The notes beneath the pieces were generated by a model that was not told the DNA's origin, did no database searches, and was given only the letters and a program-made list of their open reading frames with translations. The position numbers and the translations under genes are program-made. Positions 3,136-31,623 of a stretch of DNA of 32,000 nucleotides are shown here, piece after piece (within the stretch, counting starts at the first letter, position 1; every line of letters begins with the position of its first letter). Source of the DNA: Candidatus Nitrospira inopinata. GTDB taxonomy: Bacteria; Nitrospirota; Nitrospiria; Nitrospirales; Nitrospiraceae. The DNA lies in the NCBI RefSeq assembly GCF_001458695.1, contig NZ_LN885086.1, positions 570,001 to 602,000 on the forward strand, given 5' to 3'.

Positions 3136-3401
3136 GAACGCTCCCTCCCCTTTTTCGCGCGGACCCACCCCTTTTCGCCTCGGCGCCCGTGAAGGTCTTG
3201 TGCTTCTCTCTCTTGCCGCTTTCTCCCTTGTACTCCTTCAAAATCAGTGCCCGCTTTTTTAGTCTGTCATTTATTTATTGCGCGCGCATATCCGCGCATC
3301 TGCCGCAATAGGCAACAGTGCAGGGGCAAAATGAACCAGTCCATCCGGTTGTCTTTGTGCGATACTAGGGTTTTGGAAGGTTCTGGAGGGACCATTCTTC
3401 T

Positions 3402-11521: not shown

Positions 11522-13702
11522 ATGACCGGCTCTTCGTCCGATCACCTTGCAGGATCCCTCACGCCGTTCTTCCGCCCTCGTCGCGTCGCTGTGGTCGGGG
11601 CATCCCGTGAAAAAGGCAGCATCGGGCATCGGGTATTGGACTGTCTGCGAAGCGGAGGGTTTACCGGCTCGATCATCCCCGTCAATCCTCATGTTGACAC
11701 CATCGACAGCCTGCGCGCGTTCTCCTCTCTCTCAGCCATCCCGGACTCGATTGACCTTGCGGTCATCACCGTTCCCGCCCATCTCGCTCTGTCCGTGATC
11801 GACGAGTGTGCCGCCAAGCCGGTACGGACCGTCATCATGATCGCCGCCGGTTTTGCCGAAACGGGCGAAAGAGGAGCCAGGATCGAGCGGGAACTGCGCA
11901 CGAAGATTCAGCAACACGGCATCCGCCTCATCGGACCGAATTGTTTCGGCCTCATGAACTGTGATCCGACTCTCAGGCTCAACGCGACCTACACACCGCT
12001 TCTTCCGCCTTTCGGGTCCGTCTCCATCGCCTCAGACAGTGGAGGCGTCGGCGCCATGGTGGTCATGGCGGCCCGACGGGTCAATCTTGGCATCTCCACG
12101 TACGTGAGTCTCGGCAATCATGTGGACGTCAACGTCAACGACCTCTTGGAATATTGGGAACAGGATGCCACCACCCAGGTCATCTTGTTGTACCTCGAAA
12201 CCATCGCTGAGCCCCAACGGTTTCGACGGCTCGCCGAGAGAGTCGGCAGGCACAAACCGATCATCGCCTTGAAAGCCGGACGCACCACGGCCGGCCAAGC
12301 GGCTGCCGGCTCACATACAGCGGCCCTGGCAACCAACGACCGGGCCGTGGACGCTCTCTTCACTCAATGCGGTGTCATCCGAGCCTCGACGGTGGAGGAG
12401 TGGCTTGCGCTCGCCGTGGCGTTTTCCAACCAGCGACTCCCCGTCGGCCGCCGTGTCGGCATCCTGACCAACTCCGGCGGAGCCGGAGTCCTGTGCGCGG
12501 ACAGTTGCGGGAACGAAGGATTGCTCGTCCCTCCATTGCCGCCATCGGTCAGTGCCACACTGGCTTCGTTTCTGTCGCCACTGGCGGCGCTCACAAACCC
12601 TGTCGACATGATCGGGATCGCAACGGAAGACCAACATGCGGCCGCCGTCGAAACCCTATTACGGTCCGATGTCCTCGATGCCCTCATCATCGTGCATCTG
12701 TCGATCAATGTCGCGGACAACGATCAAGTTGCAGCCGGCATTGCGAGGGGAATCCGTGCAGCAAGGCTGGCCGGCAGTCGCAAACCCGTCTTTCTCTGTT
12801 GGATGGCCGAGGGCGATGCGGACCGCCACTTCGATATCGATGGAGCGATCATCCCAACCTCTCGCTCCCCGGAAATGCCCGCCTTCGCTATCAGCCGTAT
12901 CTTGTCTTACGAAACATGGCGAGAACTGTCAGCAAAGGGGGTGTTCCTACCGCCTGTCCGTGAGCTGCCCCATCTTGACTTGCCCCAGGCTAGGGCCATT
13001 TGCGTCAAGGCCCTCGCCGAGCGCGGGCCAGGCTGGCTCACGACAGAAGAGGTGCAGGCCCTGCTGAGCACGGTGAACGTCCCGCTTTTGGGCCACCTTG
13101 TAACCAATCCAGAGGAAGCTGTCCTGGCTGCCAAAATCATCGGCTATCCGGTGGCGGTGAAACTCGCGTCCCATCACATTCTGCACAAAACGGAGTTTGG
13201 TGCGGTGTGCCTCAATCTGACTGACGCGGAAGCCGTCACCCAGGCTTTTCATACCATCAAAAAAAGGCTCGCGCAGGCCGGCAAATCGGATGTAGATGTA
13301 ATGGAAGGCGTGTTGGTGCAACCGATGGTGTCAAGCGGCGTGGAGGTGCTGATCGGCGCGACCCGCGATCCGCATTTGGGCCCTGTGATCGCGGTCGGCC
13401 TGGGCGGTGTGCTGGTCGAACTTCTGGGTGACGTTCAACTGGGGCTCACTCCCCTCACGAAACACGACGCATCTAGGATGATTCGGAATCTGAAAGGGTA
13501 CCCCCTGCTCACCGGCTACCGAGGCAGGCCGGCAATGGATAAGCGGGCACTCGAAGATGCGCTCTTGCGGATCTCCCGCCTCGTCGAGACAATCCCAATC
13601 ATCAGCGAACTTGACCTCAACCCAATCATCGTGCTGCCTGACGGTCAGGGGTGTCGGCTCGTCGATGCACGGGTGCTGGTCCATGCACCTTCTGAACATT
13701 GA
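11522..13702 (+). CDS. ADP-forming acetyl-CoA synthetase / acyl-CoA synthetase (NDP-forming), fused alpha+beta
   Basis: 726 aa. N-terminal CoA-binding domain (FFRPRRVAVVGAS...), succinyl-CoA-ligase-like flavodoxin domain (IGPNCFG), C-terminal ATP-grasp (GYPVAVKL...HKTEFGAV). No GNAT tail, so not a Pat-type acetyltransferase. Confidence 0.9.
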   Translation: MTGSSSDHLAGSLTPFFRPRRVAVVGASREKGSIGHRVLDCLRSGGFTGSIIPVNPHVDTIDSLRAFSSLSAIPDSIDLAVITVPAHLALSVIDECAAKPVRTVIMIAAGFAETGERGARIERELRTKIQQHGIRLIGPNCFGLMNCDPTLRLNATYTPLLPPFGSVSIASDSGGVGAMVVMAARRVNLGISTYVSLGNHVDVNVNDLLEYWEQDATTQVILLYLETIAEPQRFRRLAERVGRHKPIIALKAGRTTAGQAAAGSHTAALATNDRAVDALFTQCGVIRASTVEEWLALAVAFSNQRLPVGRRVGILTNSGGAGVLCADSCGNEGLLVPPLPPSVSATLASFLSPLAALTNPVDMIGIATEDQHAAAVETLLRSDVLDALIIVHLSINVADNDQVAAGIARGIRAARLAGSRKPVFLCWMAEGDADRHFDIDGAIIPTSRSPEMPAFAISRILSYETWRELSAKGVFLPPVRELPHLDLPQARAICVKALAERGPGWLTTEEVQALLSTVNVPLLGHLVTNPEEAVLAAKIIGYPVAVKLASHHILHKTEFGAVCLNLTDAEAVTQAFHTIKKRLAQAGKSDVDVMEGVLVQPMVSSGVEVLIGATRDPHLGPVIAVGLGGVLVELLGDVQLGLTPLTKHDASRMIRNLKGYPLLTGYRGRPAMDKRALEDALLRISRLVETIPIISELDLNPIIVLPDGQGCRLVDARVLVHAPSEH

Positions 13703-15968: not shown

Positions 15969-16481
15969 CTACTTACACTTGGCGATGGCATCAAGCTCCG
16001 CTTTGAGCTTGGCTCGATCATCGCAGAGCCGGTCGAGCGGCAATTTGAACAACGCCTCAATGCGCGCCCGCAACGTGCGATAGACCCGCTCAAACTCGGC
16101 GTCGATCTCCGCCTCTGTTCCGGTCGCTTTGGCCGGATCCTCGACACCCCAATGGGCACGCAGCGCAGGACCAAGATAAGCCGGGCAGGCTTCTCCTGCC
16201 GCATCATCACACACCGTGATCACCAGGTCCGGCGCAACCGAAAGGTCGGTCCACGACTTGCTGTGTAAGCCCTCAGTCGCAATGCCTTCCCGTCGCAACA
16301 AAGCCAACGAGCGGGGATGGACCCTGCCGGTCGGATGGCTGCCCGCGCTCATGGCGCGCCACTTTTGGCCTGCCAGCGCGTTGAACGTGGCTTCGGCCAG
16401 GATCGATCGGCAGGAGTTGCCGGTGCATAGGAACAACACAGAGCGTTGCATTGATTGTTCGTTTGGCTCAGACGGAGGCAC
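15969..16481 (-). CDS. arsC: LMW-PTP-type, thioredoxin-coupled arsenate reductase
   Basis: P-loop VLFLCTGNSCRSILAE (CX5R) plus downstream VITVCDDAAGEACP Cys pair, as in Trx-coupled ArsC. Overlaps the trxC stop by 14 nt if the GTG 16481 start is used (alternative ATG 16451). Confidence 0.8.
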   Translation of the reverse strand: MPPSEPNEQSMQRSVLFLCTGNSCRSILAEATFNALAGQKWRAMSAGSHPTGRVHPRSLALLRREGIATEGLHSKSWTDLSVAPDLVITVCDDAAGEACPAYLGPALRAHWGVEDPAKATGTEAEIDAEFERVYRTLRARIEALFKLPLDRLCDDRAKLKAELDAIAKCK

Positions 16482-16902
16482 GGACCCATCGGACGATGTC
16501 CGGCAGCCCCAGCGCCCCTGACCGCCGCGTGACCTCGCGCCCTTGGCGAAAGAGGATCAGAGTGGGGATCCCCGTAATTCCAAATCGGGCCGCCAGTTCG
16601 TGCTCCTCTTCGGTATTCACCTTGGCCAGCCGAACATGGGGTTCCAGTGTCTTCGCCGCCTGCTCAAAAGCCGGCGCCATGATCAGGCACGGCCCGCACC
16701 AGGGCGCCCAAAAATCGACCGCGACCGGAATATCATTGCGTGAGATATGGGTCTCAAAATTCGCCTTTGTCAACGTGATCGGCTGTCCCACAAACAACGG
16801 TCTATGGCACAGACCGCACTTGGGTCCTTCGCTCAGACGGGAGCCCGGCACGCGATTGATGCCTCCGCAATGGGGGCAAACGATGTGAAGCGGATCAGTC
16901 AT
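16468..16902 (-). CDS. trxC: thioredoxin 2 (Zn-finger N-terminal extension)
   Basis: 144 aa. N-terminal CPHC...CGLC zinc-ribbon, then WAPWCGPC active site and the thioredoxin fold. Confidence 0.9.
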   Translation of the reverse strand: MTDPLHIVCPHCGGINRVPGSRLSEGPKCGLCHRPLFVGQPITLTKANFETHISRNDIPVAVDFWAPWCGPCLIMAPAFEQAAKTLEPHVRLAKVNTEEEHELAARFGITGIPTLILFRQGREVTRRSGALGLPDIVRWVRASV

Positions 16903-17224: not shown

Positions 17225-18145
17225 TCACACACCGAGATTCTGCCGAGGATTAAACGCCAGTTCCTGCGCCATCATCCGATAGAGTTGTCGAGCACGTTCT
17301 GTGTCCGCCGGCGGCAACACCACTTCCAACATGAGATACAGATCGCCCGGCGGATCGCTGGGAATCCCACGGCCCTTGAGCCGAAGTTTCTGCCCGCTTC
17401 GCGATCCCGGCGGAATCTTGACCTCCACCACGCCGGTCGGGGTCGGCGCCTTCACGGTCGCGCCCAGCGCCGCCTCCCAAGGAGCAATCGGCAGCGTCAA
17501 CGACAGATCGTGGCCGTCCACCCTGTAGAGCGAATGGGGATCAAAATGAACCTCCAAGTACAGATCGCCGCCCGATCCCGGCGCGCCCTGGCCGGCCAGT
17601 CTGATCAGTTGGCCTTCACGGATGCCCTTGGGAATCCGGACCTTGAGCGTGTGCTCGCGGAGCGAAACTCGGCCTTGTGCGTCCAGGTCCGGAACGCGCA
17701 GCGTGATGGCGCGGGTCGCTCCATGAAAGGCGTCTTCGAGTGGAATGACGATCTTCGCGTGCCGGTCTTCTCCCCGGCCCCGCCCCGCGCCGGCGCGACG
17801 GGAAAAATTACCGAAGAGGCTGGAAAAGAAGTCGCTGAATTCGGCGGCGTCCTCCGTCGAGAATCGGCCCGGAGAAAATTCAAATCCGGCCGCCCAGTCC
17901 GGCGGCGGCGTAAATTCCTGCCCCGCCTGCCAACCGCGGCCCAGTTGATCGTAGGCGGCCCGTTTCTGCGGATCGTGCAGCACCTCGTAGGCCTCGCTGA
18001 TCTCCTTGAATCGAGCCTCCGCGCCAGGCTCTTTGTTGACGTCGGGGTGGTAGGTCCGCGCGAGCTTTCGATAGGCCTTCTTGATCTCGTCGGCCGTGGC
18101 CGTCCGCTCAACGCCGAGAATCTTGTAGTAATCCTTAAATTCCAT
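17225..18145 (-). CDS. cbpA: curved-DNA-binding DnaJ-class co-chaperone CbpA
   Basis: 306 aa. J-domain DYYKILGVERTATADEIKKAYRKLARTYHPDVN with HPD. No Zn-finger Cys repeats. C-terminal DnaJ_C beta domains. Confidence 0.9.
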   Translation of the reverse strand: MEFKDYYKILGVERTATADEIKKAYRKLARTYHPDVNKEPGAEARFKEISEAYEVLHDPQKRAAYDQLGRGWQAGQEFTPPPDWAAGFEFSPGRFSTEDAAEFSDFFSSLFGNFSRRAGAGRGRGEDRHAKIVIPLEDAFHGATRAITLRVPDLDAQGRVSLREHTLKVRIPKGIREGQLIRLAGQGAPGSGGDLYLEVHFDPHSLYRVDGHDLSLTLPIAPWEAALGATVKAPTPTGVVEVKIPPGSRSGQKLRLKGRGIPSDPPGDLYLMLEVVLPPADTERARQLYRMMAQELAFNPRQNLGV

Positions 18146-18222: not shown

Positions 18223-19893
18223 TCATTGCCATTGGGCCGCTTCCCACGTGCGGTACGACCCCGTCAAGTTCCTCGCCCGGAAACCGTGCTGACCGAGCAG
18301 GCGCGCCGCAATATACGATCGTTGTCCGGTCTGGCAATAGACGACGATGTCACGATCTCGCGGCAATTCGTCCATGCGGCTCCGCAATTCATCCAATGGA
18401 ATATGGAATGAACCGGGGATCGCCCCCCGCGCCCGCTCATCCGGCCGACGGACATCCAACACGAAGGTTGTACGGGGATCAAGCGAAGCCATCTCTCGCC
18501 ACTGTGCCACCGCCACGTCGCCCTTCACCACGTTCTGCGCCACCATCCCCGCCACATTGACCGGGTCCTTGGCTGAACCGTAGGGAGGCGCATAGGCCAA
18601 TTCCAGATCCACCAGATCGTGGACCGTCATCCCGGCTTTGAGCGCAGTCGCCAACACATCGATCCGTTTATCCACCCCTTCCCGGCCGACGGCCTGTGCG
18701 CCGAGCAGCTTCCCCGTTTCCGGCGCGAACAGAATTTTCATCGCAATCGGCTCTGCGCCCGGGTAGTAGCCCGCATGGGACCCCGGATGCAGATGAACCA
18801 CCTGGAACGGAATAGCGGCCGCACGGAGGGTCTTTTCATTGGCTCCCGTGCAGGCAGCGGTGAGGGTAAACAGCCGGAGGATGGACGTGCCAAACGTCTC
18901 AGCGTATCGAGCGGGACGGCCCAGAATGTTGTCGGCGGCGATGCGGCCTTGGCGATTGGCTGGTCCGGCCAGTGGAACCAAGGCCCATTGCCCGGTGACG
19001 CCGTCACGGACCTCGATTGCGTCGCCTACGGCCCAGATCGAGGGATCGCTGGTCCTGAGCTGTTCATCGACCCGGATACCGCCCAGCGCGCCGATTTCCA
19101 AACCGGCTTCCCTTGCCAGTGTCACCTCCGGCTTGACGCCCATGCTGAGCACGACCGTATCAGCCGGCAATCGACGCCCGTTCTTGAGGACGACAAGAGA
19201 CGATTTGGCCGGTTCTTTTTCTGAGGGGGGCTCGAACGACACGACCGGATCGTTCAGATGCAACGTGACTCCGTTCTCACGCAGCTCCCGGTGCAGCCAG
19301 GCGGCCATGTCCGGATCGAGCGGCGCCATGACTTGGGGCTGCGCTTCGACCACCGTGACCTCGTGGCCGCGTCGTCGCAATTGTTCGGCCATCTCCAGAC
19401 CGATATACCCACCCCCCACCACCACGGCCCGACAGCGACCGCACTCACTCGACCAGGCCATGATCCGTTCGACGTCGGGAATGTTCCGCAGCATGAAATG
19501 ACCGGGCCGATCAATTCCCGGAAGCGGCGGTTTGAGGGGTGACGCGCCCATGGAGAGAATCAGCGCGTCATAGGCTTCGTCATACTCCCGGCCGGTCTCC
19601 ACCTCTCGTGCACGCACGAGACGGGCCGCCCGGTCGATTCGGATCACTTCCGTCTTCACTCGCACATCCAGATTGAACCGCGCCTTGAGGCTCTCCGGTG
19701 TCTGTACCAACAAACTGTCCGGCTCGGCGATTTCGCCGCCGACGAAATAAGGGAGCCCGCAATTGGCGAACGACACGTGCGGGCCCCGCTCGAAGATGAT
19801 GATCTCGCATGCCTCGCACACCCGCCGCGCCCTGGCCGCCGCCGTGGCGCCGCCCGCGACTCCACCGATGATGATGAGGCGACGACCCATCAC
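18223..19893 (-). CDS. CoA-disulfide reductase / NADH-dependent persulfide-reductase-type flavoprotein with C-terminal rhodanese domain
   Basis: 556 aa. FAD site IIGGVAGGATAAARA. Redox Cys in SFANCGLPYF, the CoADR/Nox signature. NAD site VVGGGYIGLE. C-terminal rhodanese with active-site loop VYCQTGQRS. Confidence 0.9.
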   Translation of the reverse strand: MMGRRLIIIGGVAGGATAAARARRVCEACEIIIFERGPHVSFANCGLPYFVGGEIAEPDSLLVQTPESLKARFNLDVRVKTEVIRIDRAARLVRAREVETGREYDEAYDALILSMGASPLKPPLPGIDRPGHFMLRNIPDVERIMAWSSECGRCRAVVVGGGYIGLEMAEQLRRRGHEVTVVEAQPQVMAPLDPDMAAWLHRELRENGVTLHLNDPVVSFEPPSEKEPAKSSLVVLKNGRRLPADTVVLSMGVKPEVTLAREAGLEIGALGGIRVDEQLRTSDPSIWAVGDAIEVRDGVTGQWALVPLAGPANRQGRIAADNILGRPARYAETFGTSILRLFTLTAACTGANEKTLRAAAIPFQVVHLHPGSHAGYYPGAEPIAMKILFAPETGKLLGAQAVGREGVDKRIDVLATALKAGMTVHDLVDLELAYAPPYGSAKDPVNVAGMVAQNVVKGDVAVAQWREMASLDPRTTFVLDVRRPDERARGAIPGSFHIPLDELRSRMDELPRDRDIVVYCQTGQRSYIAARLLGQHGFRARNLTGSYRTWEAAQWQ

Positions 19894-20420: not shown

Positions 20421-20786
20421 TCAGCCGATCGGATCAAACGGAGCCAAGCTCCGGATATACGACAAGATGTCCCAGATCTCTTGATCCGACAGACGATCCG
20501 CCCATCCGTGCATGGGGCTGAAAAGGACGCCGTGCTTGATCGCGAGATACAGATCCATATCCGTCTTGATTCGTGACTTGGCCGACCGGAAATTCGCCGG
20601 AGGCACGATCAGATCTTTGATGTCGGGCCCCAGTCCGTCACCGGCGGTTCCATGGCACCCGGCACAATGCCGTTCATAGAGCACCTTGCCTTCCTTAGGA
20701 ACACTCTGTTGAGACACTGCCGGCATCGGAGCGCTCATGAGCAAGACCATGGCAACAGTCAGAACGCCGAAGAGACGTGCCTTCAT
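20421..20786 (-). CDS. monohaem class-I c-type cytochrome
   Basis: ATG 20786. Signal peptide MKARLFGVLTVAMVLLMSAP. CAGCHG. PPANFRS...MH...LSDQEIWDILSYIRSL. Paralog of 9929..10288. Confidence 0.85.
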   Translation of the reverse strand: MKARLFGVLTVAMVLLMSAPMPAVSQQSVPKEGKVLYERHCAGCHGTAGDGLGPDIKDLIVPPANFRSAKSRIKTDMDLYLAIKHGVLFSPMHGWADRLSDQEIWDILSYIRSLAPFDPIG

Positions 20787-20878
20787 GCCTATCCTCTCTT
20801 TTTGAATGACCAAATGGCCAACTATAGCTCAGAAACTGGTTCTCAGGCCCTCAGGATCATCCATCGGTGCCATTGATC

Positions 20879-21484
20879 CTACCGTTCGGCGCCCAGCGGC
20901 CGTTTGATGCTCACCGCTCCCCGCAGATCGCCGGCCTGGTACCCTGTCGCTTGATCAAAGGGATATTGCGCCTTCAGCACCGTTGTTATCTCTTCCGGCA
21001 TCCGGTCGCTTGGCCCATGGCAAAGAAGACAATGGGGCTGCACCACGATCGGTTTCATAAACCGGTAGTACCGCCCGTTCGGTTCTATAACAATCTCACT
21101 GTGCGTCATTCCCATCAGATCCTCTCCCTTGGCCGCTCGCTCGGCAAATGTGGCCAGGACCTGCTGCTCCCAGACATCGGGCATGCCGAGCAGAGGATTG
21201 CGCACCCTCGTGCCCACTCTTGTCACCCGCCAGCCCTGTTCCCGCGACAATCGGCCGGCAAGTTCCGGCGCAAGATCGGCGCAGACCTTCACGACCTCCG
21301 TCGGACCTCCCTTGGCCATCTCCCTCCTCATAGCCTCGCCGAACTGCCTGATCAACGTAGTCGCCACCTCCGAAGCGGCCTTGTCGTATTCCGCGAGCTC
21401 AGCAGCTTGGCCCGTGAGGGGCGACACCGCCAACAAAGCGAAACCAGCCACCAGAAGTGTTCCTGCTCTTTCTCGTCTAATCAT
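20879..21484 (-). CDS. DUF3365 (Tll0287-like) periplasmic haem-c PAS-like domain protein
   Basis: ATG 21484 after AGGAGGGAGG. Signal peptide. RREMAKGGPTEVVKVCADLAPELA..., single CLLCHG, and C-terminal YQAGDLRGAVSI, as in DUF3365. Confidence 0.8.
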   Translation of the reverse strand: MIRRERAGTLLVAGFALLAVSPLTGQAAELAEYDKAASEVATTLIRQFGEAMRREMAKGGPTEVVKVCADLAPELAGRLSREQGWRVTRVGTRVRNPLLGMPDVWEQQVLATFAERAAKGEDLMGMTHSEIVIEPNGRYYRFMKPIVVQPHCLLCHGPSDRMPEEITTVLKAQYPFDQATGYQAGDLRGAVSIKRPLGAER

Positions 21485-21521
21485 CCCGCCCCCTCCCTCC
21501 TGAACCACCCCACCATCTCTC

Positions 21522-22301
21522 TCAATGTTCGTGCGTGGCTCCTCCGGTGGTCACGTCTCCCTCATGGTCATCGTTCCCATGCCCTTCCTGATGACCGGCG
21601 CCTGTTCCTCCATGACTTCCCTGTCCCATACTTCCATGCTCCATGCCACCCATCCCAGACTGGTGGCTGCCACCGGACTGGCCACCGTGTCCGCCATGGC
21701 CGCCTCCGCTCATTCCGCCTCCACCCATCCCACCACCCATGCCGCCGCGCCCTCGTCCTCCCATGCCGCCCATCATGCCGCCGCCACCCATGCCGCCGCC
21801 CATTCCTCCTCCACGCTGTCTCTTGCTTTCTCTTTTCATCTGCTCACGATGGGCGCGGTCCTTTTCCCGCTGATCGGGCGTCAACAGAACCTTGGCGCTC
21901 TGCTGAGCCTTGATCGCTGAAAAGAGCAAGGCTCCCTCCGATCGTTTCAGTTGCTCGATCTTTGCCTGAATCTCGGCGAGGTCGGTCTTTTCATCCTCGA
22001 GCAGCGCGTCCAGCTCAAGTTTGGCGATTTTTCGGTCGGCCTCCAATCGCGCCTCCGTCCGTTTGTAATCCAACTGAAGGGTCTTGAGCTTGGCGATTTG
22101 CTCGGCCGTGAGCCCGAACTCCTTGGCATGTTTCAACAGATGGGTAATGTAGTGTCCACTGTGGTCTGCCTGCTCCTCGGGATCGTGGCCTCCATGCCCC
22201 ATCTGCCCATGCCCCTGATCGGCCAACGCCGGCGATCCAGTCAGGCTCACGATCAAGAGGACGCTCGCCGCTTTTTGCCATGCTTTCCTCATCGATTGCA
22301 T
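21522..22301 (-). CDS. Spy/CpxP/ZraP-family periplasmic protein with His-rich N-terminus and long Gly/Met/His-rich C-terminal tail
   Basis: Signal peptide. HGQMGHGGHDPEEQADHSGH. The LTAEQIAKLKTLQLDY...LTPDQREK (LTxxQ) repeats define the Spy/CpxP/ZraP fold. The tail is RGGGMGGGMGGGGMMGGMGGRGRGGMGGGMGGGGMSGGGHGGHGG...HEGDVTTGGATHEH. Confidence 0.75.
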   Translation of the reverse strand: MQSMRKAWQKAASVLLIVSLTGSPALADQGHGQMGHGGHDPEEQADHSGHYITHLLKHAKEFGLTAEQIAKLKTLQLDYKRTEARLEADRKIAKLELDALLEDEKTDLAEIQAKIEQLKRSEGALLFSAIKAQQSAKVLLTPDQREKDRAHREQMKRESKRQRGGGMGGGMGGGGMMGGMGGRGRGGMGGGMGGGGMSGGGHGGHGGQSGGSHQSGMGGMEHGSMGQGSHGGTGAGHQEGHGNDDHEGDVTTGGATHEH

Positions 22302-24248: not shown

Positions 24249-24785
24249 TCACTCATCTGCGGAGTCTTCTTGATCGTGAGGGCTTTCGGCTTGATGCCGA
24301 GGGCCCATTCTTGGCCCCATTCCCTCTCTAGGCCCCATGCCTCGACGGCCGTGTCTCTGGGCGAAGGTCCGTTCATACTGAATCACACTCCAAATCTCTT
24401 CGTCGGACAGCATGGTGCCGAATCCGACCATGGCCGTGCCGGGCGAACCGTGTTTGATCACCCAAAAAATCTCTCCCTCCGTGCGGTGTCGCCAAAATCC
24501 ATGGTGCCGGAAGTTCCTGGGCGGAGGGTTCAACTGAGCCGCCGCCGGGCCATTGCCATTCCCATCCACGCCGTGACAATTGAGACAGGTGCCCTTGCCG
24601 TGATAAATCGCCTTGCCTTGCTCGATGACCTCGGGAGAAAAGGGCACCGGGCTTTTGAGCGCCCGTGCCTCGGCCAGTTTATCGGGCGGTACTCTCGGCC
24701 GCATCAGGTGCCGTTCGGCGTCTGCCGGAGACGACGAAAGGGCGACCGTCGCCGCCAACAATAAGAAGCATGTTCCTTGTCTCAT
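24249..24785 (-). CDS. monohaem class-I c-type cytochrome with Met/Gly/Pro-repeat C-terminal tail
   Basis: ATG 24785 overlaps the upstream stop (ATGA). Signal peptide MRQGTCFLLLAATVALSSSPADA. CLNCHG. PPPRNF...IFWVIKHGSPGTAM...LSDEEIWSVIQY. Tail RGMGPREGMGPRMGPR. Confidence 0.85.
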   Translation of the reverse strand: MRQGTCFLLLAATVALSSSPADAERHLMRPRVPPDKLAEARALKSPVPFSPEVIEQGKAIYHGKGTCLNCHGVDGNGNGPAAAQLNPPPRNFRHHGFWRHRTEGEIFWVIKHGSPGTAMVGFGTMLSDEEIWSVIQYERTFAQRHGRRGMGPREGMGPRMGPRHQAESPHDQEDSADE

Positions 24786-25264
24786 GGTTCGGTCGCCTGT
24801 CCGTCCATTGCGAACGACCGCACGTAGCGTAGCACCAGCCACGCTTCTTCTTCCGTCAAAATGAGCGGAACAAAGGGAGCCATCGCCGTGCCCTTGCTGC
24901 CGTTCTTCAAAATCCAGAACAGCTCTCCATCGGTCCTGGCGGCCTGCCACTCCTTATCGGTGAAATCGCGAGGCAACGGCCCCCTCACCGTCCCCGGTTC
25001 GATGTCGCTGCCCAATCCTTTGCCGTCTTTTCCATGGCAGGTCACGCAGAATGCTTTTCCATGAAATAATTGCTTGCCCTTTTCGATCACCTCTTTGGTC
25101 GCCGGAAACGGATTGGTCCACGTTTTGACTTCCTCGATCTGATCCGCCGGCACCCGAGGCCTCAACACTGCTTTGTCCGCGCCAAAGGCTTGAAGGCTGG
25201 TCATTCCTATTGTCATCGCGCCGACCGTCATCACGAGCACCGTCGCCGAAAGATGGACGTTCAT
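24782..25264 (-). CDS. monohaem class-I c-type cytochrome (tandem paralog)
   Basis: ATG 25264. Signal peptide. CVTCHG. LPRDF...LFWILKNGSKGTAM...LTEEEAWLVLRYVRSF. Collinear with 24249..24785. Confidence 0.85.
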   Translation of the reverse strand: MNVHLSATVLVMTVGAMTIGMTSLQAFGADKAVLRPRVPADQIEEVKTWTNPFPATKEVIEKGKQLFHGKAFCVTCHGKDGKGLGSDIEPGTVRGPLPRDFTDKEWQAARTDGELFWILKNGSKGTAMAPFVPLILTEEEAWLVLRYVRSFAMDGQATEP

Positions 25265-25356
25265 TTCTCTTGCCTCTTCACACGCTCTCTCATGACCACC
25301 TGCAGAGGAGGACCGGCCTCCCGTTTCCGGCAAGCCGGTCCACCAGACCGGCCTCC

Positions 25357-25878
25357 TTACTTGTCCGCGTAGCCGGGGAACTTGTGTCCGAGCGACTGAG
25401 GATAGGTCACGGTGCCATCCGGAAATTCCTGGCCATGTTGCCAGAGGTGATAAATCACCCCATCCGTCTGGGCCGCAGCCTCCGCCACCTTGGCGGCCTG
25501 GTCATCGGGCATATCCAGGACTTTCACGCGGCCCGTCGCAATCTCGACCTTGTGATCGTGAAAATAGCGATGCCAATGGATGGCGGGCAATTTTCTCGTG
25601 AGATCCTTGGCGACAAAATATTCGACACCGACGAGCGGCGCCTTGGGATCGGTGGATTCGAACAGGAGACACTGAAGAATCTTGTCGGAAATGCCCTTGC
25701 AGTAATGGTGGAACGGCCCGCCCGGCGTCCCATCCGGCATCATATGCGGCGCCTGAACGTGAATCTCGTACCCCATCGCCGGACTGGCCGGCTCCCCACC
25801 GATAGCCATCGGCGGCATGGCCCCGATAGATCCCATGGCAACCATTGCAACAGCGGTGACGAACCCCTTTCTTATCAT
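25357..25878 (-). CDS. DUF1264 (OBAP-like) domain protein, exported
   Basis: ATG 25878 after GGAAGGGGG. Signal-like N-terminus. FHHYCKGISDKILQCLLFES...PLVGVEYFV...HWHRYFHDHKVEIATGR resembles the DUF1264 family. Confidence 0.7.
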   Translation of the reverse strand: MIRKGFVTAVAMVAMGSIGAMPPMAIGGEPASPAMGYEIHVQAPHMMPDGTPGGPFHHYCKGISDKILQCLLFESTDPKAPLVGVEYFVAKDLTRKLPAIHWHRYFHDHKVEIATGRVKVLDMPDDQAAKVAEAAAQTDGVIYHLWQHGQEFPDGTVTYPQSLGHKFPGYADK

Positions 25879-26014
25879 AACAGCCCCCTTCCTTTGTTTG
25901 CGGCATCCCGGCCCGGCCCATCCGGACTGAGAAACAGTTCCGCCTGTGACTGACCGTTGGAGACCGACAGGCTCAAAAGGATTCACTCGGGGGGCATTGC
26001 TCAACACGCCTCTG

Positions 26015-27088
26015 TCACAAATCCAATTCCACCATCTTGCGGTGGAACCGAACGACCACGTTCGGATCGGGCGCCAACCGGACCCGCGCATCCTCTTTTC
26101 CCTGATAGGGCAACAGGTTCAGGACGTAGCGAAGACTTTCAAGTCGCGCCGCCTGCTTGTCATTGGCCTGCACGATGATCCAAGGGCTGAACGTCGTATG
26201 GGTTTTGCTGAACATTTCCTCTTTGCAGCGGGTATAGGCGTCCCACAACTCTTGCGCCTTCTCATCGACCGGACTGAGTTTCCACTGTTTGAGTGGATTC
26301 CGGCGCCTCGCCTCGAAGCGTCTGGCCTGTTCGTCCTTCGAGATCGAGAACCAAAACTTGATGAGAATCACCCCGTCTTCGTAGAGCATATGCTCGAATT
26401 CCGGAACCTGCTGGAGGAACCGCTGATGTTCTTTCTTGGTGCAAAACCCCATCACCGGTTCGACCACGGCCCGGTTGTACCAGCTTCGATCGAAGAAGAC
26501 GATCTCGCCTCTGTTCGGCAACTGACGAATGTATCGCTGAAAGTACCATTGACCCCGTTCTTCATCGGTCGGCTTCGGCAAGGCCACAACGCGCATCGAG
26601 CGGGGATTCAGATGTTCGGTAAACCGCCGGATGGTTCCCCCCTTGCCGGCCGCATCCCGCCCCTCCACCAAAATCGCGATACGTTCTCCCGTCCGCTGAA
26701 CCCACCGTTGCAGCTTCACCAACTCCACTTGCAGTTGCTCCAGCTCGTGCTCGTACAGAAGTCTCTTGCGGACGTCCTGAAGATCGACGTTGCGGTTCCG
26801 CAGGAGCAGAAAAAGCCCCCTTCTCGTGTTGATCAACCGCAGATCTTCTTCTGTAAGGGAACCGGCTGGATCACCGATCGGTTTCAGCGACCCCGCCGGA
26901 GACCTTGCTAGTTGCGGGGAATAGCCGTCCCCCTCCCGAGGCATCCTCGTCGGAATCGTTTCCAGCTCACTCGCCTCCGGAGGTTGGGCCGGATGCAGGA
27001 GATCCTCGATGTCCGCCAGATCAGCCGTCAAGTCGGATGAATCGCTTCGTTTTTTCGGCTTTCCAATCGCGCGTTCGTCGGATTCCAT
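26015..27088 (-). CDS. ppk2: polyphosphate kinase 2 (single PPK2 domain) with about 100-aa acidic/disordered N-terminal extension
   Basis: 357 aa. SD GAGGAGG. Walker A VEGRDAAGKGGTI. FQRYIRQLPNRGEIVFFDRSWYNRA is the PPK2 lid/Walker B region. Confidence 0.9.
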   Translation of the reverse strand: MESDERAIGKPKKRSDSSDLTADLADIEDLLHPAQPPEASELETIPTRMPREGDGYSPQLARSPAGSLKPIGDPAGSLTEEDLRLINTRRGLFLLLRNRNVDLQDVRKRLLYEHELEQLQVELVKLQRWVQRTGERIAILVEGRDAAGKGGTIRRFTEHLNPRSMRVVALPKPTDEERGQWYFQRYIRQLPNRGEIVFFDRSWYNRAVVEPVMGFCTKKEHQRFLQQVPEFEHMLYEDGVILIKFWFSISKDEQARRFEARRRNPLKQWKLSPVDEKAQELWDAYTRCKEEMFSKTHTTFSPWIIVQANDKQAARLESLRYVLNLLPYQGKEDARVRLAPDPNVVVRFHRKMVELDL

Positions 27089-27116: not shown

Positions 27117-27476
27117 TCAGAACGCCACGACCTTGTCCCGCTCGGCCACCGCCTTGATGTAATCCGGCATCGCCTTGATGGAAGCCCCCTTGACCAGATC
27201 CGCCTCGCCGATTTGCCTGGCCACGGCGCACGCCCCGCACACCCAGATGGGCACCCCGGCCGCCTGCACGGCGGCGAGCAGGTCTTTTAGCGGCGAAAGA
27301 TTGACGCCGGTGACATGATCGGCCACGCCTTTCCGCGCCAACGTGACCGCCTCGTTCCACAGCCAGAGCGCCACGTCATGCCCCTGCTCTTTGGCCGTCT
27401 TCGCCGCCATGAACGGCAAGGTTGCCATCGTCGGATCGTCCGTGCCTCGACTTCCTGAGATGATGAATGTCGCCAT
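27117..27476 (-). CDS. DsrE/DsrF-like sulfur-relay family protein
   Basis: ATG 27476 after AAGGAG. 119 aa. MATFIISGSRGTDDP...GHDVALWLWNEAV...VCGAC pattern typical of the DsrE family fold. Its stop lies 28 nt before ppk2. Confidence 0.8.
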   Translation of the reverse strand: MATFIISGSRGTDDPTMATLPFMAAKTAKEQGHDVALWLWNEAVTLARKGVADHVTGVNLSPLKDLLAAVQAAGVPIWVCGACAVARQIGEADLVKGASIKAMPDYIKAVAERDKVVAF

Positions 27477-27667
27477 GAATGTCTCCTTCTTTACAAGTTC
27501 GTCACGTCGGCCCTCAATCCCCTTGGTTCCTTCATCCACCGCACGACTGACCTGACCGTGAACACCGCGCCGCCGCCTCTACAAAGGCGGACCTTCAGAC
27601 CCTGGATCAGAGTCGGGTAACCCCCTTCACCGCCCAGGGCCTGGGCCATCAGCTTTGACCATTCTCG

Positions 27668-27729: not shown

Positions 27730-28224
27730 TCACCCCCCGCCGATCTCTCCTCGAGTTTCGATCACAAACAACTCGCCTTTCACCTCGGGATGGATATCAC
27801 ACCAAAGGGCGTGCCGGATACTTTCCGCCCCACCGGTCAGCGGGTCGAAATTCGACGGCGCCGTCGCAAAACGCAGCGTCATCGTCTTGCCGGCATCGAC
27901 GTGAAAGGACCGAAACTGTTTTCCCCGCACCTCGGTCCCACCTTCGACCTTCACGGGAATGTCCTTGAACAACGCCGATGCGAAGCCGTGTGTCACGGAA
28001 TCCTGGTTGCGGACGACAATGATCGTGTCGTGCGACGGCATCGTGATGCCAACCGTCTCATAACCGTGCTGGCGGTCCCTGATGGTGATTTCCACTTTTG
28101 AGGGCGGCGCCTCCATCCCCTTGGCCTGTGCATACGCAACATCTCTCTGACCGCTCCACGCCATCAACGGTACGATGGCAAGTGACATGGCGAACAATGG
28201 TGATCGGTATCGTCGAACGTTCAT
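27730..28224 (-). CDS. exported cupredoxin-like single-domain protein (atypical ligand set)
   Basis: ATG 28224 after AAAGGGAGGGG. Signal peptide. Beta-rich pattern VEITIRD...TIIVVRNQDSVTHGFAS...FHVDAGKTMTLRF...LWCDIHPEVKGELFV matches Cupredoxin_1-type proteins (His ... Cys-x2-His). Val occupies the position where the axial Met is expected. Confidence 0.6.
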   Translation of the reverse strand: MNVRRYRSPLFAMSLAIVPLMAWSGQRDVAYAQAKGMEAPPSKVEITIRDRQHGYETVGITMPSHDTIIVVRNQDSVTHGFASALFKDIPVKVEGGTEVRGKQFRSFHVDAGKTMTLRFATAPSNFDPLTGGAESIRHALWCDIHPEVKGELFVIETRGEIGGG

Positions 28225-28463
28225 GTTTCCCCTCCCTTTTGATAACGATAGCATTTCGCCCCCTCTTCTCCAGGGAACGTTCGGCCCCTTCGGACCGTGT
28301 CGGCCTCGACGTTTACTTCCCTCCTTTCCCCCATCTCCATCATCTGGGCCATGAGCGCCGGCGTTCAGCTATTTCGGCCTCGCTGAAGAGCGCGGCGGCC
28401 ATCGACGGGTTGCCCATTCCATCTATGGACCGCTTCCCTGAACTCAGGCCTCACACCACTTCA

Positions 28464-29876
28464 TCACTTCGCCAAGCTCCTGATGTATCGAATCAACTGC
28501 CACACCTGCTCATCCGTCAGCCCGGAAAACGCCATCATGCCGGTGCCGGGCGAGCCGTTTTTGATGATCCAGAACAATTGCCCGTCGGGAATATTCTCCA
28601 TCATCGCGCCGCATGTGAAGTTTCTCGGCGGCGGGACCAACGCGGCGCCCATCAGCCCCTTTCCATCGCCCTGCTCGCCGTGGCACATGGCGCAGACGAC
28701 GGGCTGCGCGGTTTTCAAAAACAGCGCCTTCCCCTCGGCGATCGCGGAAGCGGAAGGCGGCACCGGATTCGTCATGCGCAAGAACTCATCGGGAGCCTTG
28801 GCCGTCTTGCGGGGCTGTACGCAGCCGCCGGCCTCGCCAACGCTCGGCGCCGCCGGTTCGGGCGCCCCCTTGAACGTCGCCTTCAAATAGACGATCACGT
28901 CCACCACGCCCTGCTGTCCGATCGTCAGCCCCCAGTACGGCATGGTCGGCGATTTGCCGACGGCCCGGCCGCCGTGGTTGATCACGTTGTACAGATATTC
29001 CATCGGCAGTTTCTCAAACGGTATGTTGGCGTGAATGGCCGGTTTCGGCTCCAACCCAGACGCCGCGGGGCCGTCGCCCTTGCCCGTGAAGCCGTGGCAC
29101 TGGGCGCAATATTCCCTGTACAGCGTCTTGCCCCGATCGACGCTCGCGGTGGCAAACTCGGGACTCGTCCAGGGCTCGTAGTATTGAAAGTCGTTGACGC
29201 CTTGCACGGCGAGAAAGCCGATCAGCGACCGCAATTGTGCGTCGGTCGCGTCGGCCAAAAATTCCCCAGAATGGATGACGAAGTCCTGCGGATTCTGGCC
29301 GAAACGATACAGCCAGTCCGCGTTGTAGCGCCGACCGGCATGTTGTAAGGCGGTGCTCTGCGGACCTCCGATCAGCTTTCCATTCTCCTCGATCGTGTGA
29401 CAGCCGATGCAGGCATGTTCCTTGTAGATTTTCGCGCCGACCGTCACGTCGAACTTCGTCACCTTCGCCACGTCGAAAGCTCCGACCGTCACACGCGGAT
29501 CCTTGTTGTGTTCGGCAAAATAGTCGGCGAGGGCGTTCGCGTCAGACTCCGTCACCACCGGATGCTTCGATGGCACATTCGTGATGTCCCAAAGATACGC
29601 CTTGGCGTAGAGCGGCGGCTCCTTTCCGGTCAACCAACGAATGAGCCACGGTCGCTGATACTTGCTGCCGGCCCATATCAGATCAGGCGCATGGAGCTTG
29701 AACCGTGATTCAGCCGTTCCTTGCAGTCTGTGACATTGCACGCAGATCCGTTGAACAAGATCCTTGGCACGAGCATGAGACGGCTCACTTCCGTAAGAAA
29801 GATCCTGCCCCCACCCCAGTCCGACACAGAGCACCATGATTCCCGCCGCCGCATGCCCCGCTTTTCTCAGATTCAT
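28464..29876 (-). CDS. tetrahaem c-type cytochrome (four class-I-like domains)
   Basis: ATG 29876. Signal peptide. Four CxxCH motifs (CVQCH, CIGCH, CAQCHG, CAMCHG). The last domain carries the PPPRNF...LFWIIKNGSPGTGM...LTDEQVWQLIRYIRSL signature of the free-standing monohaem paralogs. Confidence 0.85.
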   Translation of the reverse strand: MNLRKAGHAAAGIMVLCVGLGWGQDLSYGSEPSHARAKDLVQRICVQCHRLQGTAESRFKLHAPDLIWAGSKYQRPWLIRWLTGKEPPLYAKAYLWDITNVPSKHPVVTESDANALADYFAEHNKDPRVTVGAFDVAKVTKFDVTVGAKIYKEHACIGCHTIEENGKLIGGPQSTALQHAGRRYNADWLYRFGQNPQDFVIHSGEFLADATDAQLRSLIGFLAVQGVNDFQYYEPWTSPEFATASVDRGKTLYREYCAQCHGFTGKGDGPAASGLEPKPAIHANIPFEKLPMEYLYNVINHGGRAVGKSPTMPYWGLTIGQQGVVDVIVYLKATFKGAPEPAAPSVGEAGGCVQPRKTAKAPDEFLRMTNPVPPSASAIAEGKALFLKTAQPVVCAMCHGEQGDGKGLMGAALVPPPRNFTCGAMMENIPDGQLFWIIKNGSPGTGMMAFSGLTDEQVWQLIRYIRSLAK

Positions 29877-29990
29877 TTTCCGTCCTTCCCCTCTTGAAAT
29901 CCCGTGGAAACCCATGAGGTCGCCGGTCGTTGCTTTGCGATTTCTCGTCCTCCCGGCTGGTGCGCGAAATCTTCTTGGGGCAATGTCTCG

Positions 29991-30854
29991 TTAATACGGC
30001 GCATCGGTCGGTTTTCCGCCCTTCGGCCAATCATGAATTTTTTTAGGAAAGTCCGGGCGCGGCCGGCTGTCAATGTAGGCCGCCACGTCGAACGCCTCCT
30101 CGTCCGTGATCGACCATCCTCGCCCACGCGGCATATTGGCCTTGATGAAGGACGCAGCCACGCTGACTCTCGCCATGTCCGAGCCGATCGTATAGGAGCG
30201 AGGGCCCCACACCGGCGGCGCCGCCATGGCCCCTTGCCCATCGGCGCCATGGCAAAAGGCGCATTTCTTTTCATAGACGACTTTGCCCTTCGCGACGTCC
30301 GGAGCCCTCACCGGCGTGATGGGCGGGAGTCCTCGCCAAGGCACGGAACTGCCACGCGGGACATTCTTCGACAACCAGTCGATGTAGGCGACGATTGCCG
30401 ACAGCTTCGTGCTGTCCGCCGGAAGCGCCGTCCCATTCATGTTCCGCTCGAAACAGTCGTTGATTTGGTCGATAAGCGTCACCCGCCGTCCCGCCCGTTC
30501 TCGGTATTCCGGATAGAGGATGCTGATCCCGACGAACGAGAGCGCGTTGGGATGAAGCCCGGCCTCGAGATGGCAATTGGTACAGTTGAGCCCATTGCCG
30601 ACGTACCGTTTCCCATACTGCTGCGTATCGACCACCATCAGGTAGCCCATCCGAATATCCTCGCCCCGCAAATCACCAGGAATCGTGTCCGGGGATGGAG
30701 GCAGAAACAAGGGATGGATGTCCGCCCCCGGCGGTTCCCTCTGTCCTCCAACCTGGGCCGACGGGATACACCCACCGACCAGCAGAATCAGACCAAAAAC
30801 CACGACGCCAACGCCCCTCTGTTCGCTCACAATCACAACCTCACTTCTTGGCAT
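29991..30854 (-). CDS. dihaem c-type cytochrome lipoprotein, TsdA-like (thiosulfate dehydrogenase / tetrathionate reductase family)
   Basis: Two CxxCH motifs (CTNCH, CAFCHG). A conserved-looking Cys lies in INDCFERNMNG, 39 residues after the first haem His. KANMP lies 39 residues after the second haem His. PPVWGPRSY and RPRPDF motifs. Lipobox LLVGGC. Alternative GTG starts at 30836/30830 have a better SD and would remove the 14-nt overlap with the upstream gene. Confidence 0.7.
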   Translation of the reverse strand: MPRSEVVIVSEQRGVGVVVFGLILLVGGCIPSAQVGGQREPPGADIHPLFLPPSPDTIPGDLRGEDIRMGYLMVVDTQQYGKRYVGNGLNCTNCHLEAGLHPNALSFVGISILYPEYRERAGRRVTLIDQINDCFERNMNGTALPADSTKLSAIVAYIDWLSKNVPRGSSVPWRGLPPITPVRAPDVAKGKVVYEKKCAFCHGADGQGAMAAPPVWGPRSYTIGSDMARVSVAASFIKANMPRGRGWSITDEEAFDVAAYIDSRPRPDFPKKIHDWPKGGKPTDAPY

Positions 30855-31059
30855 CGGACGACGGTCGGCACGTATTGATGCCCAACAGCGCCGTGAGCGG
30901 ACAATATTGGATCGCCCCTGTCACGAGCAACACGACTCCCACTGTCAACGTGATGCCCATTCCCACCGGAGGCAATTCCGCGAGCGCCCCGACTCCGATC
31001 AATAATAACCCCATGACAATGCGGATGGGCCTTTCAATTCCTCCGACGTTACAGGTCAT
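30841..31059 (-). CDS. DUF2892 (YgaP-type) small two-TM membrane protein
   Basis: 72 aa. NVGGIERPIRIVMGLLLIGVG...LLVTGAIQYCPLTALLGINTC matches the DUF2892 signature (NVGxxDRxxRxxxG ... CPxYxxxGxxTC). Confidence 0.8.
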   Translation of the reverse strand: MTCNVGGIERPIRIVMGLLLIGVGALAELPPVGMGITLTVGVVLLVTGAIQYCPLTALLGINTCRPSSDAKK

Positions 31060-31148: not shown

Positions 31149-31529
31149 TCACGGACGCGCGTCGGATTCCGCGCCGAGCGTTCGCACATAGGCCACGACA
31201 TCCCAAATTTCTTCATCGGACAGCGCGTGTTGCCACGCTCCCATGGCCGTGTTGGGTTTGCCTCCGTGGATGCGTGTGAACAGCCCTCCATCAAGACGAT
31301 TCTGAACGGCGGCGGAGGTCAGATCGGCCGGCGGCGGCACGAGATTGACGCCCGTCTTCCCTTTCCCATCAATACCATGACAACGCATGCACGTATTCAC
31401 GTAAATTTCCCGCCCACTGACCGGATCGCCCTTGAGAGCGGCGCCAAGCTCTCTGACCGTCGGCCTTCCGGCAAACCCAGCCACCAGGATTCCGATGACC
31501 AGAATAAGCCATCCCTTCCTGCCTCGCAC
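31149..31529 (-). CDS. monohaem class-I c-type cytochrome (membrane-anchored or signal peptide)
   Basis: The ORF is open to ATG 31601, but GTG 31529 lies 6 nt after AGGAGG and gives MRGRKGWLILVIGILVAGFA. CMRCHG. PPPADL...NTAM...LSDEEIWDVVAYVRTL. Confidence 0.8.
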   Translation of the reverse strand: MRGRKGWLILVIGILVAGFAGRPTVRELGAALKGDPVSGREIYVNTCMRCHGIDGKGKTGVNLVPPPADLTSAAVQNRLDGGLFTRIHGGKPNTAMGAWQHALSDEEIWDVVAYVRTLGAESDARP

Positions 31530-31623
31530 CGGCTCCCTCCTGTCTTCTCCTGAGGCCCTCGTGCGAGCAGTGTGCCACAACGATCCGTCTCGCCTTTTCA
31601 CAAGATGCTTTCACAGGCAAGCA

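Follow-up and report, generated by a model that had tools for sequence, protein, structure and literature searches.

The closest described relatives of the gene reported here encode TsdA enzymes, dihaem cytochromes c of Allochromatium vinosum (AvTsdA) and Campylobacter jejuni (CjTsdA). Their ligands are His53/Cys96 at haem 1 and Lys208/Met209 at haem 2 in the former, and His99/Cys138 and His207/Met255, together with Asn254 and Lys252, in the latter (PMC6879331; PMC5146829). AvTsdA binds thiosulfate through Arg109, Arg119, Ser127, and the main-chain NH of Gly221 (Grabarczyk et al. 2015, PMC4423706), in a precursor numbering equal to the mature one plus 27. In addition, M. purpuratum TsdBA is biased to thiosulfate oxidation, and the C. 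jejuni protein CccC, a non-catalytic paralogue, has Met for the haem-1 Cys and Ala for the Asn (PMC5146829). We analyzed a stretch of 32,000 nucleotides from Candidatus Nitrospira inopinata (contig NZ_LN885086.1, positions 570,001 to 602,000; hereafter the window) and identified a gene for a TsdA-family dihaem cytochrome c at 29991..30854 of its minus strand. On balance, and with moderate confidence, we favor the view that this gene encodes a periplasm-facing, lipid-anchored TsdA-family enzyme oxidising thiosulfate into the cytochrome c pool that nitrite oxidation feeds.

Family assignment and haem ligands

The longest open reading frame (ORF) at this position encodes 287 amino acids, and residue numbers below refer to it. 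The product matched the Pfam SoxA/TsdA cytochrome c domain (SoxA-TsdA_cyt-c, PF21342) at residues 87-166 with 49.4 bits against a cut-off of 27, followed C-terminally by a class-I cytochrome c domain at residues 186-261, with Cytochrome_CBB3 (PF13442) scoring 51.8 bits. A phmmer search of PDB sequences matched AvTsdA at E ~1e-54 over residues 53-274 and the TsdA half of M. purpuratum TsdBA (5LO9) at E 1e-40, and reached SoxA (1H31) only at E 5e-4. The top single match was the K208N variant of AvTsdA, which scores best because the query carries Asn in the Lys208 column. By BLASTP, the query was 43% identical to AvTsdA over 229 aa and 37% identical to the TsdA domain of M. purpuratum TsdBA.

NCBIfam has no TsdA model, and the TsdA architecture was defined as a protein of ~25-30 kDa that carries two CXXCH motifs and has a SoxA/TsdA-type domain at its N-terminus and a class-I cytochrome c domain at its C-terminus. 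The query has this architecture, together with full-length homology, the haem-1 Cys, the haem-2 Met, and the second pocket Arg. It lacks two pocket residues reported as invariant in TsdA, namely Arg92 (Gln130 in the query) and Ser100 (Asn138). We treated these two residues as conserved kinetic determinants rather than as defining features, because alanine variants of AvTsdA stay active. By its sequence, the protein is thus a clear TsdA relative and a further member of a known two-haem enzyme family.

The homologues at 64-94% identity all came from metagenome-assembled genomes (MAGs) of Nitrospira/Nitrospiraceae wherever the source gives a name, and the window matched Nitrospira MAG contigs at 87-94% nucleotide identity. 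The scan of the genome collection used query-specific peptide patterns and is therefore no measure of the gene's spread across Nitrospira. Many homologues are named 'thiosulfate dehydrogenase' in the public genome annotation of the Joint Genome Institute (JGI). The points that would distinguish the protein from these already annotated relatives are its own predicted lipid anchor, the remodelling of its pocket, and its occurrence in a nitrifier. Membership of SoxA was rejected: the equivalog model TIGR04484 of NCBIfam scored 35.4 bits against a cut-off of 110, and soxX, soxYZ, and soxB were not found in the window.

The ORF contains six Cys residues, of which four belong to the haem motifs CTNCH (residues 91-95, 30570..30584) and CAFCH (residues 198-202, 30249..30263), the others being Cys29 in LLVGGC and Cys134 (30453..30455) in INDCFERNMNG; these positions and those given below for the TsdA gene and its cluster are on the minus strand. 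Cys134 lies 39 residues after His95, and Met241 in K-A-N-M-P (30129..30143) lies 39 residues after His202, exactly as the earlier note on this DNA had read them; the codon coordinates were re-verified. In the HMMER alignment, I-N-D-C-F-E-R lies over I-G-D-C-F-E-R of AvTsdA (Cys96) and F-I-K-A-N-M-P over F-I-K-H-K-M-P (Lys208, Met209), with no gaps around either site and with the AvTsdA numbering checked residue by residue. His95, the predicted proximal ligand of haem 1, aligns with Av His53, and Cys134, its predicted distal ligand and catalytic Cys, with Av Cys96 and Cj Cys138. At haem 2, His202 aligns with Av His164, and Met241, the predicted distal ligand, with Av Met209. Asn240 occupies the Av Lys208 column, and Lys238 that of Av Lys206 and Cj Lys252. 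The equivalences with CjTsdA were drawn by transitivity through AvTsdA rather than by direct alignment.

The earlier note had proposed a TsdA-type His/Cys and His/Met pattern and had set this alignment in advance as its refuting test. The Cys and the Asn-Met coincide with the TsdA ligand columns, so the proposal stands, and the ligands that it had named (Av His53/Cys96, Cj Cys138, and the haem-2 residues) agree with the published ones (PMC6879331; PMC5146829).

These columns were also examined in a MAFFT alignment of the query, AvTsdA, the 120 closest homologues, and 150 representatives of 50%-identity clusters spanning the whole family. Cys was present in the Cys134 column in 270 of 270 aligned homologues and Met in the Met241 column in 260 of 264, and both His residues of the CXXCH motifs were essentially invariant. 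In the Av Lys208 column, all 120 Nitrospira homologues had Asn, as did 106 of 144 diverse representatives, whereas only 5 of the 144 had Lys. Asn-Met is the family default, and the Lys of A. vinosum is the exception. The Lys two residues before is common to AvTsdA (Lys206), CjTsdA (Lys252), and the query (Lys238).

Gene start, predicted lipid anchor, and C-terminal tail

The ATG at 30854 lies inside an upstream gene for a YgaP-like protein (stop TGA at 30841-30843) and lacks a ribosome-binding site. By contrast, the GTG at 30830 is preceded by GAGG, 8 nt upstream, and the annotated start of a 94%-identical homologue (P0001) corresponds to it. This GTG is likely the true start, which gives a precursor of 279 aa with a signal peptide of 20 residues and the lipobox Cys at residue 21. 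One homologue (P0021) was annotated at 360 aa, with an N-terminus resembling a degraded YgaP-like sequence read through into TsdA. Its length probably reflects an error in gene calling or a frameshift where the YgaP-like and TsdA genes are tightly coupled.

The predicted lipoprotein signal peptide (V/M-SEQRGVGVVVFGLILLVGG, 30768..30830) ends in the lipobox L-V-G-G-C, in which the codon of Cys29 occupies 30768-30770. A Pro/Gly-rich tether (IPSAQVGGQREPPGADIHPLFL, 30702..30767) leads from the lipobox Cys to the folded domain, and the AvTsdA alignment starts at residue 53. The query segment VVVFGLILLVGG-C combines a hydrophobic core with a lipobox of the form [LVI][ASTVIG][GAS]C. Among the 120 close homologues, 111 could be anchored on the motif P-P-S-P-[DE]-[ST]-I-P-G-D at the start of the folded domain, and a Cys ended the N-terminal hydrophobic stretch in 106 of them; the remaining five comprised three truncated sequences and two full-length ones without the lipobox Cys. 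Position -1 was Gly, Ser, or Ala in 104 of these 106, position +2 was occupied by Val, Ala, Ile, Thr, or similar residues, in no case by Asp, and the linker from the lipobox Cys to the domain measured 19-27 residues. A stricter PROSITE-like lipobox rule was satisfied by 96 of the 120. A comparable lipobox (I-F-G-C) occurs in the MlaA protein of the window, which belongs to a known family of lipoproteins.

This conservation supports the predicted lipidation, and the protein is probably lipid-anchored. The E. coli '+2 rule', which is not validated in this phylum, would sort it to the outer membrane. The lipobox seen by the earlier note is real and conserved, but its description of the protein as unlike soluble TsdA holds only against the characterised enzymes, since 28 of 144 full-length diverse representatives have a lipobox-like N-terminus. 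No characterised lipidated TsdA was found in the literature searched, the nearest item being TsdC, an accessory lipoprotein of Wolinella.

At its other end, the protein carries a C-terminal tail (DWPKGGKPTDAPY, 29994..30032), a subfamily motif without counterpart in AvTsdA. The tail pattern D-W-P-K-G-G-K-P-x-D-x-P-Y was kept in 109 of 120 Nitrospira TsdA homologues, and about half of the diverse family representatives reached this region, with the core residues (D, P, K-P, D, Y) in common. The tail may dock a partner.

Proposed function and alternatives

Following the mechanism described for characterised TsdA (Grabarczyk et al. 2015, PMC4423706; Kurth et al. 2016, PMC5146829), homology with the A. 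vinosum and C. jejuni enzymes would make haem 1 (CTNCH), with His95 and Cys134 as ligands, the catalytic centre. Cys134 would move off the iron and form a Cys-S-thiosulfonate with one thiosulfate, sending two electrons into both haems; a second thiosulfate would resolve the adduct to tetrathionate, and the reverse reaction would be possible. Haem 2 (CAFCH, His202/Met241) would relay the electrons to the c-type cytochromes encoded alongside, and, with Asn240 in place of Av Lys208, no Lys/Met ligand switch would be expected. The Cys of L-V-G-G-C would be diacylglycerol-modified, and the tether of ~22 residues would hold the enzyme at the membrane surface. From the observed homology, ligand columns, lipobox conservation, and synteny, we infer the ligation, lipidation, activity, redox partners, and direction.

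The physiological direction is most likely thiosulfate oxidation, the host being an aerobic nitrite oxidiser. The nitrite/nitrate couple lies at about +420 mV. The tetrathionate/thiosulfate couple, with E0' +198 mV (PMC5146829), is well below it, and a nitrite oxidiser could therefore feed thiosulfate electrons to the same pool.

Several observations weigh against this assignment, and those on the substrate pocket, where the earlier note had not mentioned the substitution of two 'invariant' residues, come first. Arg119 of AvTsdA (mature Arg92) was described as invariant in TsdA and SoxA, and Ser127 (mature Ser100) as invariant in TsdA; R119A raised Km 20-77 fold and lowered kcat 2.4-6.7 fold, S127A raised Km 5-20 fold with kcat little changed, and both destabilised the thiosulfonate adduct (PMC4423706). 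In the pocket segment of the query (30441..30497), Gln130 takes the place of the former; at this position, 142 of 149 representatives have Arg, and 20 of 120 Nitrospira homologues have Gln. The latter is replaced by Asn138 (Ser in 132 of 150 representatives). Among the second-domain pocket residues (30168..30179), Gly221 (mature Gly194; Gly in 112 of 142 representatives) is replaced by Asp226, which brings an extra negative charge close to the anion site. Two further positions are kept: Arg120 for Arg109 (mature Arg82, where some TsdA members have Lys; Arg in 102 of 150 representatives and 118 of 120 Nitrospira homologues), and Arg229 for Arg224 (mature Arg197; Arg in 82 of 142 representatives).

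Across the whole family, positions 130, 138, and 226 are highly conserved, with column entropies in the 9th, 14th, and 22nd percentiles. On a neighbour-joining tree of 118 Nitrospira-clade sequences, a rough tree of noisy metagenomic sequences, the same positions changed ~10, 7, and 23 times, respectively, against a mean of 6.65 per site, while the haem ligands and K-A-N-M-P showed zero changes. The Gln-Asn-Asp triple was confined to the query and the six relatives closest to it (P0001-P0006) and occurred in none of the 150 representatives; the canonical R-S-G pocket was found in 53 of 120 Nitrospira homologues, within the same gene context. These patterns suggest that the constraint on thiosulfate binding may be relaxed or shifted in Nitrospira with the Cys-haem chemistry strictly kept, and we predict that Gln130, Asn138, and Asp226 would either weaken thiosulfate binding relative to AvTsdA or shift the preference for substrate. 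Arg124 was considered as a stand-in for the Arg lost at position 130 and rejected, as no covariation was seen.

The points that remain on this side concern the partner, the model, the literature, and the direction. No TsdB homologue was found: the tetrahaem cytochrome encoded next to TsdA had no match to 5LO9 at E <= 1e-3, and the other neighbouring cytochromes are monohaem, whereas TsdB is expected to be dihaem. An AlphaFold2 model, computed without haems from a shallow alignment of 39 Nitrospira sequences (64-94% identity), reached a mean predicted local distance difference test (pLDDT) score of 50.6 and a predicted template modelling (pTM) score of 0.46; it gives no independent structural support and, being too poor for a fold search or pocket geometry, was not used. 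In the literature searched, no study linking Nitrospira to thiosulfate oxidation or TsdA was found, the search on Nitrospira TsdA having turned up only metagenomic surveys and one Nitrotoga report. A tsdA region has been noted in Nitrotoga, an unrelated nitrite oxidiser, and comparative genomics of Nitrospirales in 2025 listed only SorAB and SQR under sulfur metabolism. As for direction, the sequence gives no guide to it, and catalytic bias cannot be read from the K-x-N-M motif.

The last point bears on an alternative function, that of a respiratory tetrathionate reductase as in C. jejuni, which at low oxygen would receive electrons from H2, formate, or organic compounds via the neighbouring cytochromes. 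All characterised TsdAs run in both directions (PMC5146829), the K-x-N-M of the haem-2 pocket matches that of CjTsdA, and the couple, at +198 mV, is well suited to accept electrons. The earlier note had gone further and taken K-x-N-M as a C. jejuni type with a bias to reduction, which did not survive the comparison. Asn-Met is found in most of the family and also, as A-A-N-M-P, at haem 2 of the oxidation-biased M. purpuratum TsdBA, and is therefore no sign of a tetrathionate-reduction bias. Consistent with this, the N254K swap in CjTsdA did not shift the enzyme to A. vinosum-like behaviour (PMC5146829). Moreover, the host is an aerobic lithoautotroph, and the cluster contains no source of low-potential electrons. 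We regard tetrathionate respiration as unlikely in this organism.

A changed substrate is the other alternative suggested by the pocket: the enzyme would act on other sulfur species or, in the manner of SoxAX, conjugate thiosulfate to the thiol of a partner protein, for which the YgaP-like membrane protein, called co-transcribed, or a route to DsrE would be candidates. The restriction of the Gln-Asn-Asp triple to the query and its closest relatives, the variability inside Nitrospira of positions that are among the most conserved family-wide, and the raised Km and destabilised adduct of R119A and S127A are all consistent with it, as are the tight coupling to a Cys-containing DUF2892 gene and the very highly conserved DsrE close by. 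Against it, homologues with the canonical pocket share the same context, which is thus not bound to the altered pocket; Arg120, Arg137, and Arg229 are still present; and the alanine variants of AvTsdA keep appreciable activity. Such a change of substrate appears rather improbable.

Finally, a non-catalytic dihaem cytochrome of the CccC or QcrC type, shuttling electrons in the Nitrospira periplasm, would fit a gene lying amid many cytochrome c genes, one homologue of which is labelled 'putative quinol-cytochrome c reductase, cytochrome c subunit' by one source, but it is very improbable, because CccC types have Met for the haem-1 Cys that is invariant here, the query shows the TsdA states (Cys, Asn) at both positions that mark CccC, and the QcrC/bc1 label was rejected on a weak match to the NCBIfam model bc1_QcrC_actin (28.8 bits against a cut-off of 200, in the C-terminal class-I domain only) with no Rieske or cytochrome b genes adjoining the TsdA gene.

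Gene cluster and neighbouring genes

The proposed thiosulfate-oxidising enzyme is encoded within a cluster of minus-strand genes whose order is shared by about 20 Nitrospira loci, based on tblastn of the window proteins against 23 loci. Nitrospira sp. BO4 (CP060501.1) is among the organisms with this cluster. Upstream of TsdA, we found a YgaP-like two-helix membrane protein of 72 aa (DUF2892, Pfam PF11127, E 4e-20; 30841..31059) and a membrane-anchored monohaem cytochrome c with an N-terminal hydrophobic anchor (31149..31601), a candidate redox partner. The stop codon of the YgaP-like gene precedes the TsdA GTG by 10 nt, and the two genes adjoin in 17 of 21 Nitrospira loci compared. On the other side of TsdA lies the gene for a secreted or periplasmic tetrahaem cytochrome c with four CXXCH motifs (28464..29915; probable start Met14, 29876), likewise a candidate redox partner. 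It is followed by genes for a 174-aa secreted protein (27730..28254), a DsrE/YchN-like protein (27117..27539), PPK2 (26015-27088), and a DUF1264 protein that is a conserved cluster member (25357..26091). At the conserved end of the cluster (24249..25333), two ORFs overlap (24249-24950 and 24782-25333), and both encode monohaem cytochromes c. Besides DsrE and the YgaP-like protein, the cluster holds as many haem sites as would serve five other c-type cytochromes.

The DsrE/YchN-like protein is cytoplasmic, with a probable start at Met22 (27476) that gives 119 aa and no signal peptide. Its gene is the best-conserved of the cluster, with 81-96% identity in loci where TsdA shows 65-88%. It carries a V-C-G-A-C motif and, although it has no signal peptide, is encoded beside the gene for a periplasmic enzyme. 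The 174-aa gene, PPK2, and the tetrahaem gene were variably present across loci. The 174-aa protein is faintly cupredoxin-like (Cupredoxin_1, E 0.057, below the cut-off), matches no family above the cut-off, and has an H...C-x2-H pattern near its C-terminus. It was confined to four related MAG loci (L006, L007, L009, and L020), that is, three of the five closest loci and L020.

Several MAGs contained a 2-kb insert between TsdA and the tetrahaem gene, as in Nitrospira sp. ST-bin4 (L013, 6902-8856), and the corresponding gap was also found in L010, L011, L014, L016, L018, and L019. The insert codes for a secreted DsrE-like protein, a split YeeE/YedE 'Sulphur transport' (PF04143) pair, and OsmC, and its YeeE/YedE and DsrE-like genes connect the cluster with the handling of thiosulfate or sulfur without reliance on the TsdA annotation. 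From their names, we take some of the insert-bearing MAGs to be comammox types. The insert is absent from the window, where no more than a short gap separates TsdA from the tetrahaem gene.

Additional minus-strand genes of the window are found again in other Nitrospira loci, downstream of the TsdA cluster. These encode a monohaem cytochrome c (20421-20813), a Tll0287-like protein (20879-21508), and a protein with a weak match to Metal_resist (PF13801; 21522-22301), which we take to be a CpxP/Spy-like family. Genes for Cu/Zn superoxide dismutase, CBS, and hemerythrin proteins are added downstream of the cluster in other Nitrospira loci. This recurrence suggests that the genes at 20421-22301 belong to a more extensive island of redox or stress genes.

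Another gene with a sulfur connection lies at a distance of about 10 kb from TsdA and encodes a CoA-disulfide-reductase-like flavoprotein of 556 aa fused to a rhodanese domain (18223-19893, minus strand), an architecture of persulfide/polysulfide reductases. Near it, we identified genes for thioredoxin-2 (16468-16902), an LMW-PTP/ArsC-like protein (15969-16481), a DnaJ/CbpA-like protein (17225-18145), and tandem Usp (9046-9903). Two other genes are unrelated to TsdA: one encoding a protein with TPR and FGE-sulfatase (formylglycine-generating enzyme-like) domains (1885-3168, minus strand), and one encoding a 726-aa ADP-forming acyl-CoA synthetase (CoA_binding, Succ_CoA_lig, and ATP-grasp_5; 11522-13702, plus strand).

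Significance

A broader proposal, which we put forward tentatively and as less likely than the enzyme function itself, is that Nitrospira, both canonical nitrite oxidisers and comammox (complete ammonia oxidisers), have a conserved periplasmic module around a lipid-anchored TsdA that would use thiosulfate as an extra donor or tetrathionate as an acceptor, with a pocket remodelled in the subclade of the window towards a changed affinity or substrate. The module would comprise the YgaP-like protein, several cytochromes c, DsrE, and, in some genomes, the YeeE/YedE transporter, a capacity that was not considered in recent Nitrospirales comparative genomics. If the enzyme is active, globally important nitrifiers would have a one-step electron route from thiosulfate at +198 mV, whose electrons are thermodynamically easier to draw than those of nitrite, and nitrogen and sulfur cycling would be connected in soils, aquifers, and water-treatment systems. 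To the study of TsdA enzymes, the Nitrospira clade contributes natural variants at two 'invariant' pocket residues, and a TsdA with its own predicted lipid anchor could be used in testing the basis of affinity, catalytic bias, and partner wiring. At present, the result is a sound annotation within a known family rather than a discovery.

Comparison with known systems

Compared with A. vinosum TsdA (PDB 4WQ7, 4V2K), the query shares the two-domain dihaem fold by sequence, the His/Cys and His/Met columns at 43% identity, and the equivalents of Arg82 and Arg197. It differs in having Asn240 for Lys208 and Gln, Asn, and Asp for Arg92, Ser100, and Gly194; moreover, AvTsdA is soluble and periplasmic, whereas the query has a lipobox with a tether and an extra conserved C-terminal tail. 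In C. jejuni TsdA (C8j_0815), K252-x-N254-M255 corresponds to K238-A-N240-M241 of the query and the His-to-Cys spacing is 39 in both, but the His-to-Met spacing is 48 compared with 39, and the enzyme, which is soluble, serves a microaerophilic pathogen as its tetrathionate reductase. The TsdA domain of M. purpuratum TsdBA (PDB 5LO9) is alike in its 37% identity and its A-N-M-P motif at haem 2. In that system, the dihaem acceptor TsdB is fused to TsdA, whereas the neighbours of the query are separate tetrahaem and monohaem cytochromes.

The C. jejuni protein CccC (Cj0037) has a TsdA-like dihaem architecture, with Met and Ala in place of the Cys and Asn of the query. The Cys-ligated catalytic domain is also present in SoxA (PF21342; 1H31, E 5e-4), but the query falls under the equivalog cut-off and has no soxX, soxYZ, or soxB nearby. 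The TsdA of Wolinella succinogenes is reportedly associated with the membrane via the lipoprotein TsdC. There, the lipid anchor is on a separate accessory protein, whereas in the Nitrospira protein the lipobox is on TsdA itself.

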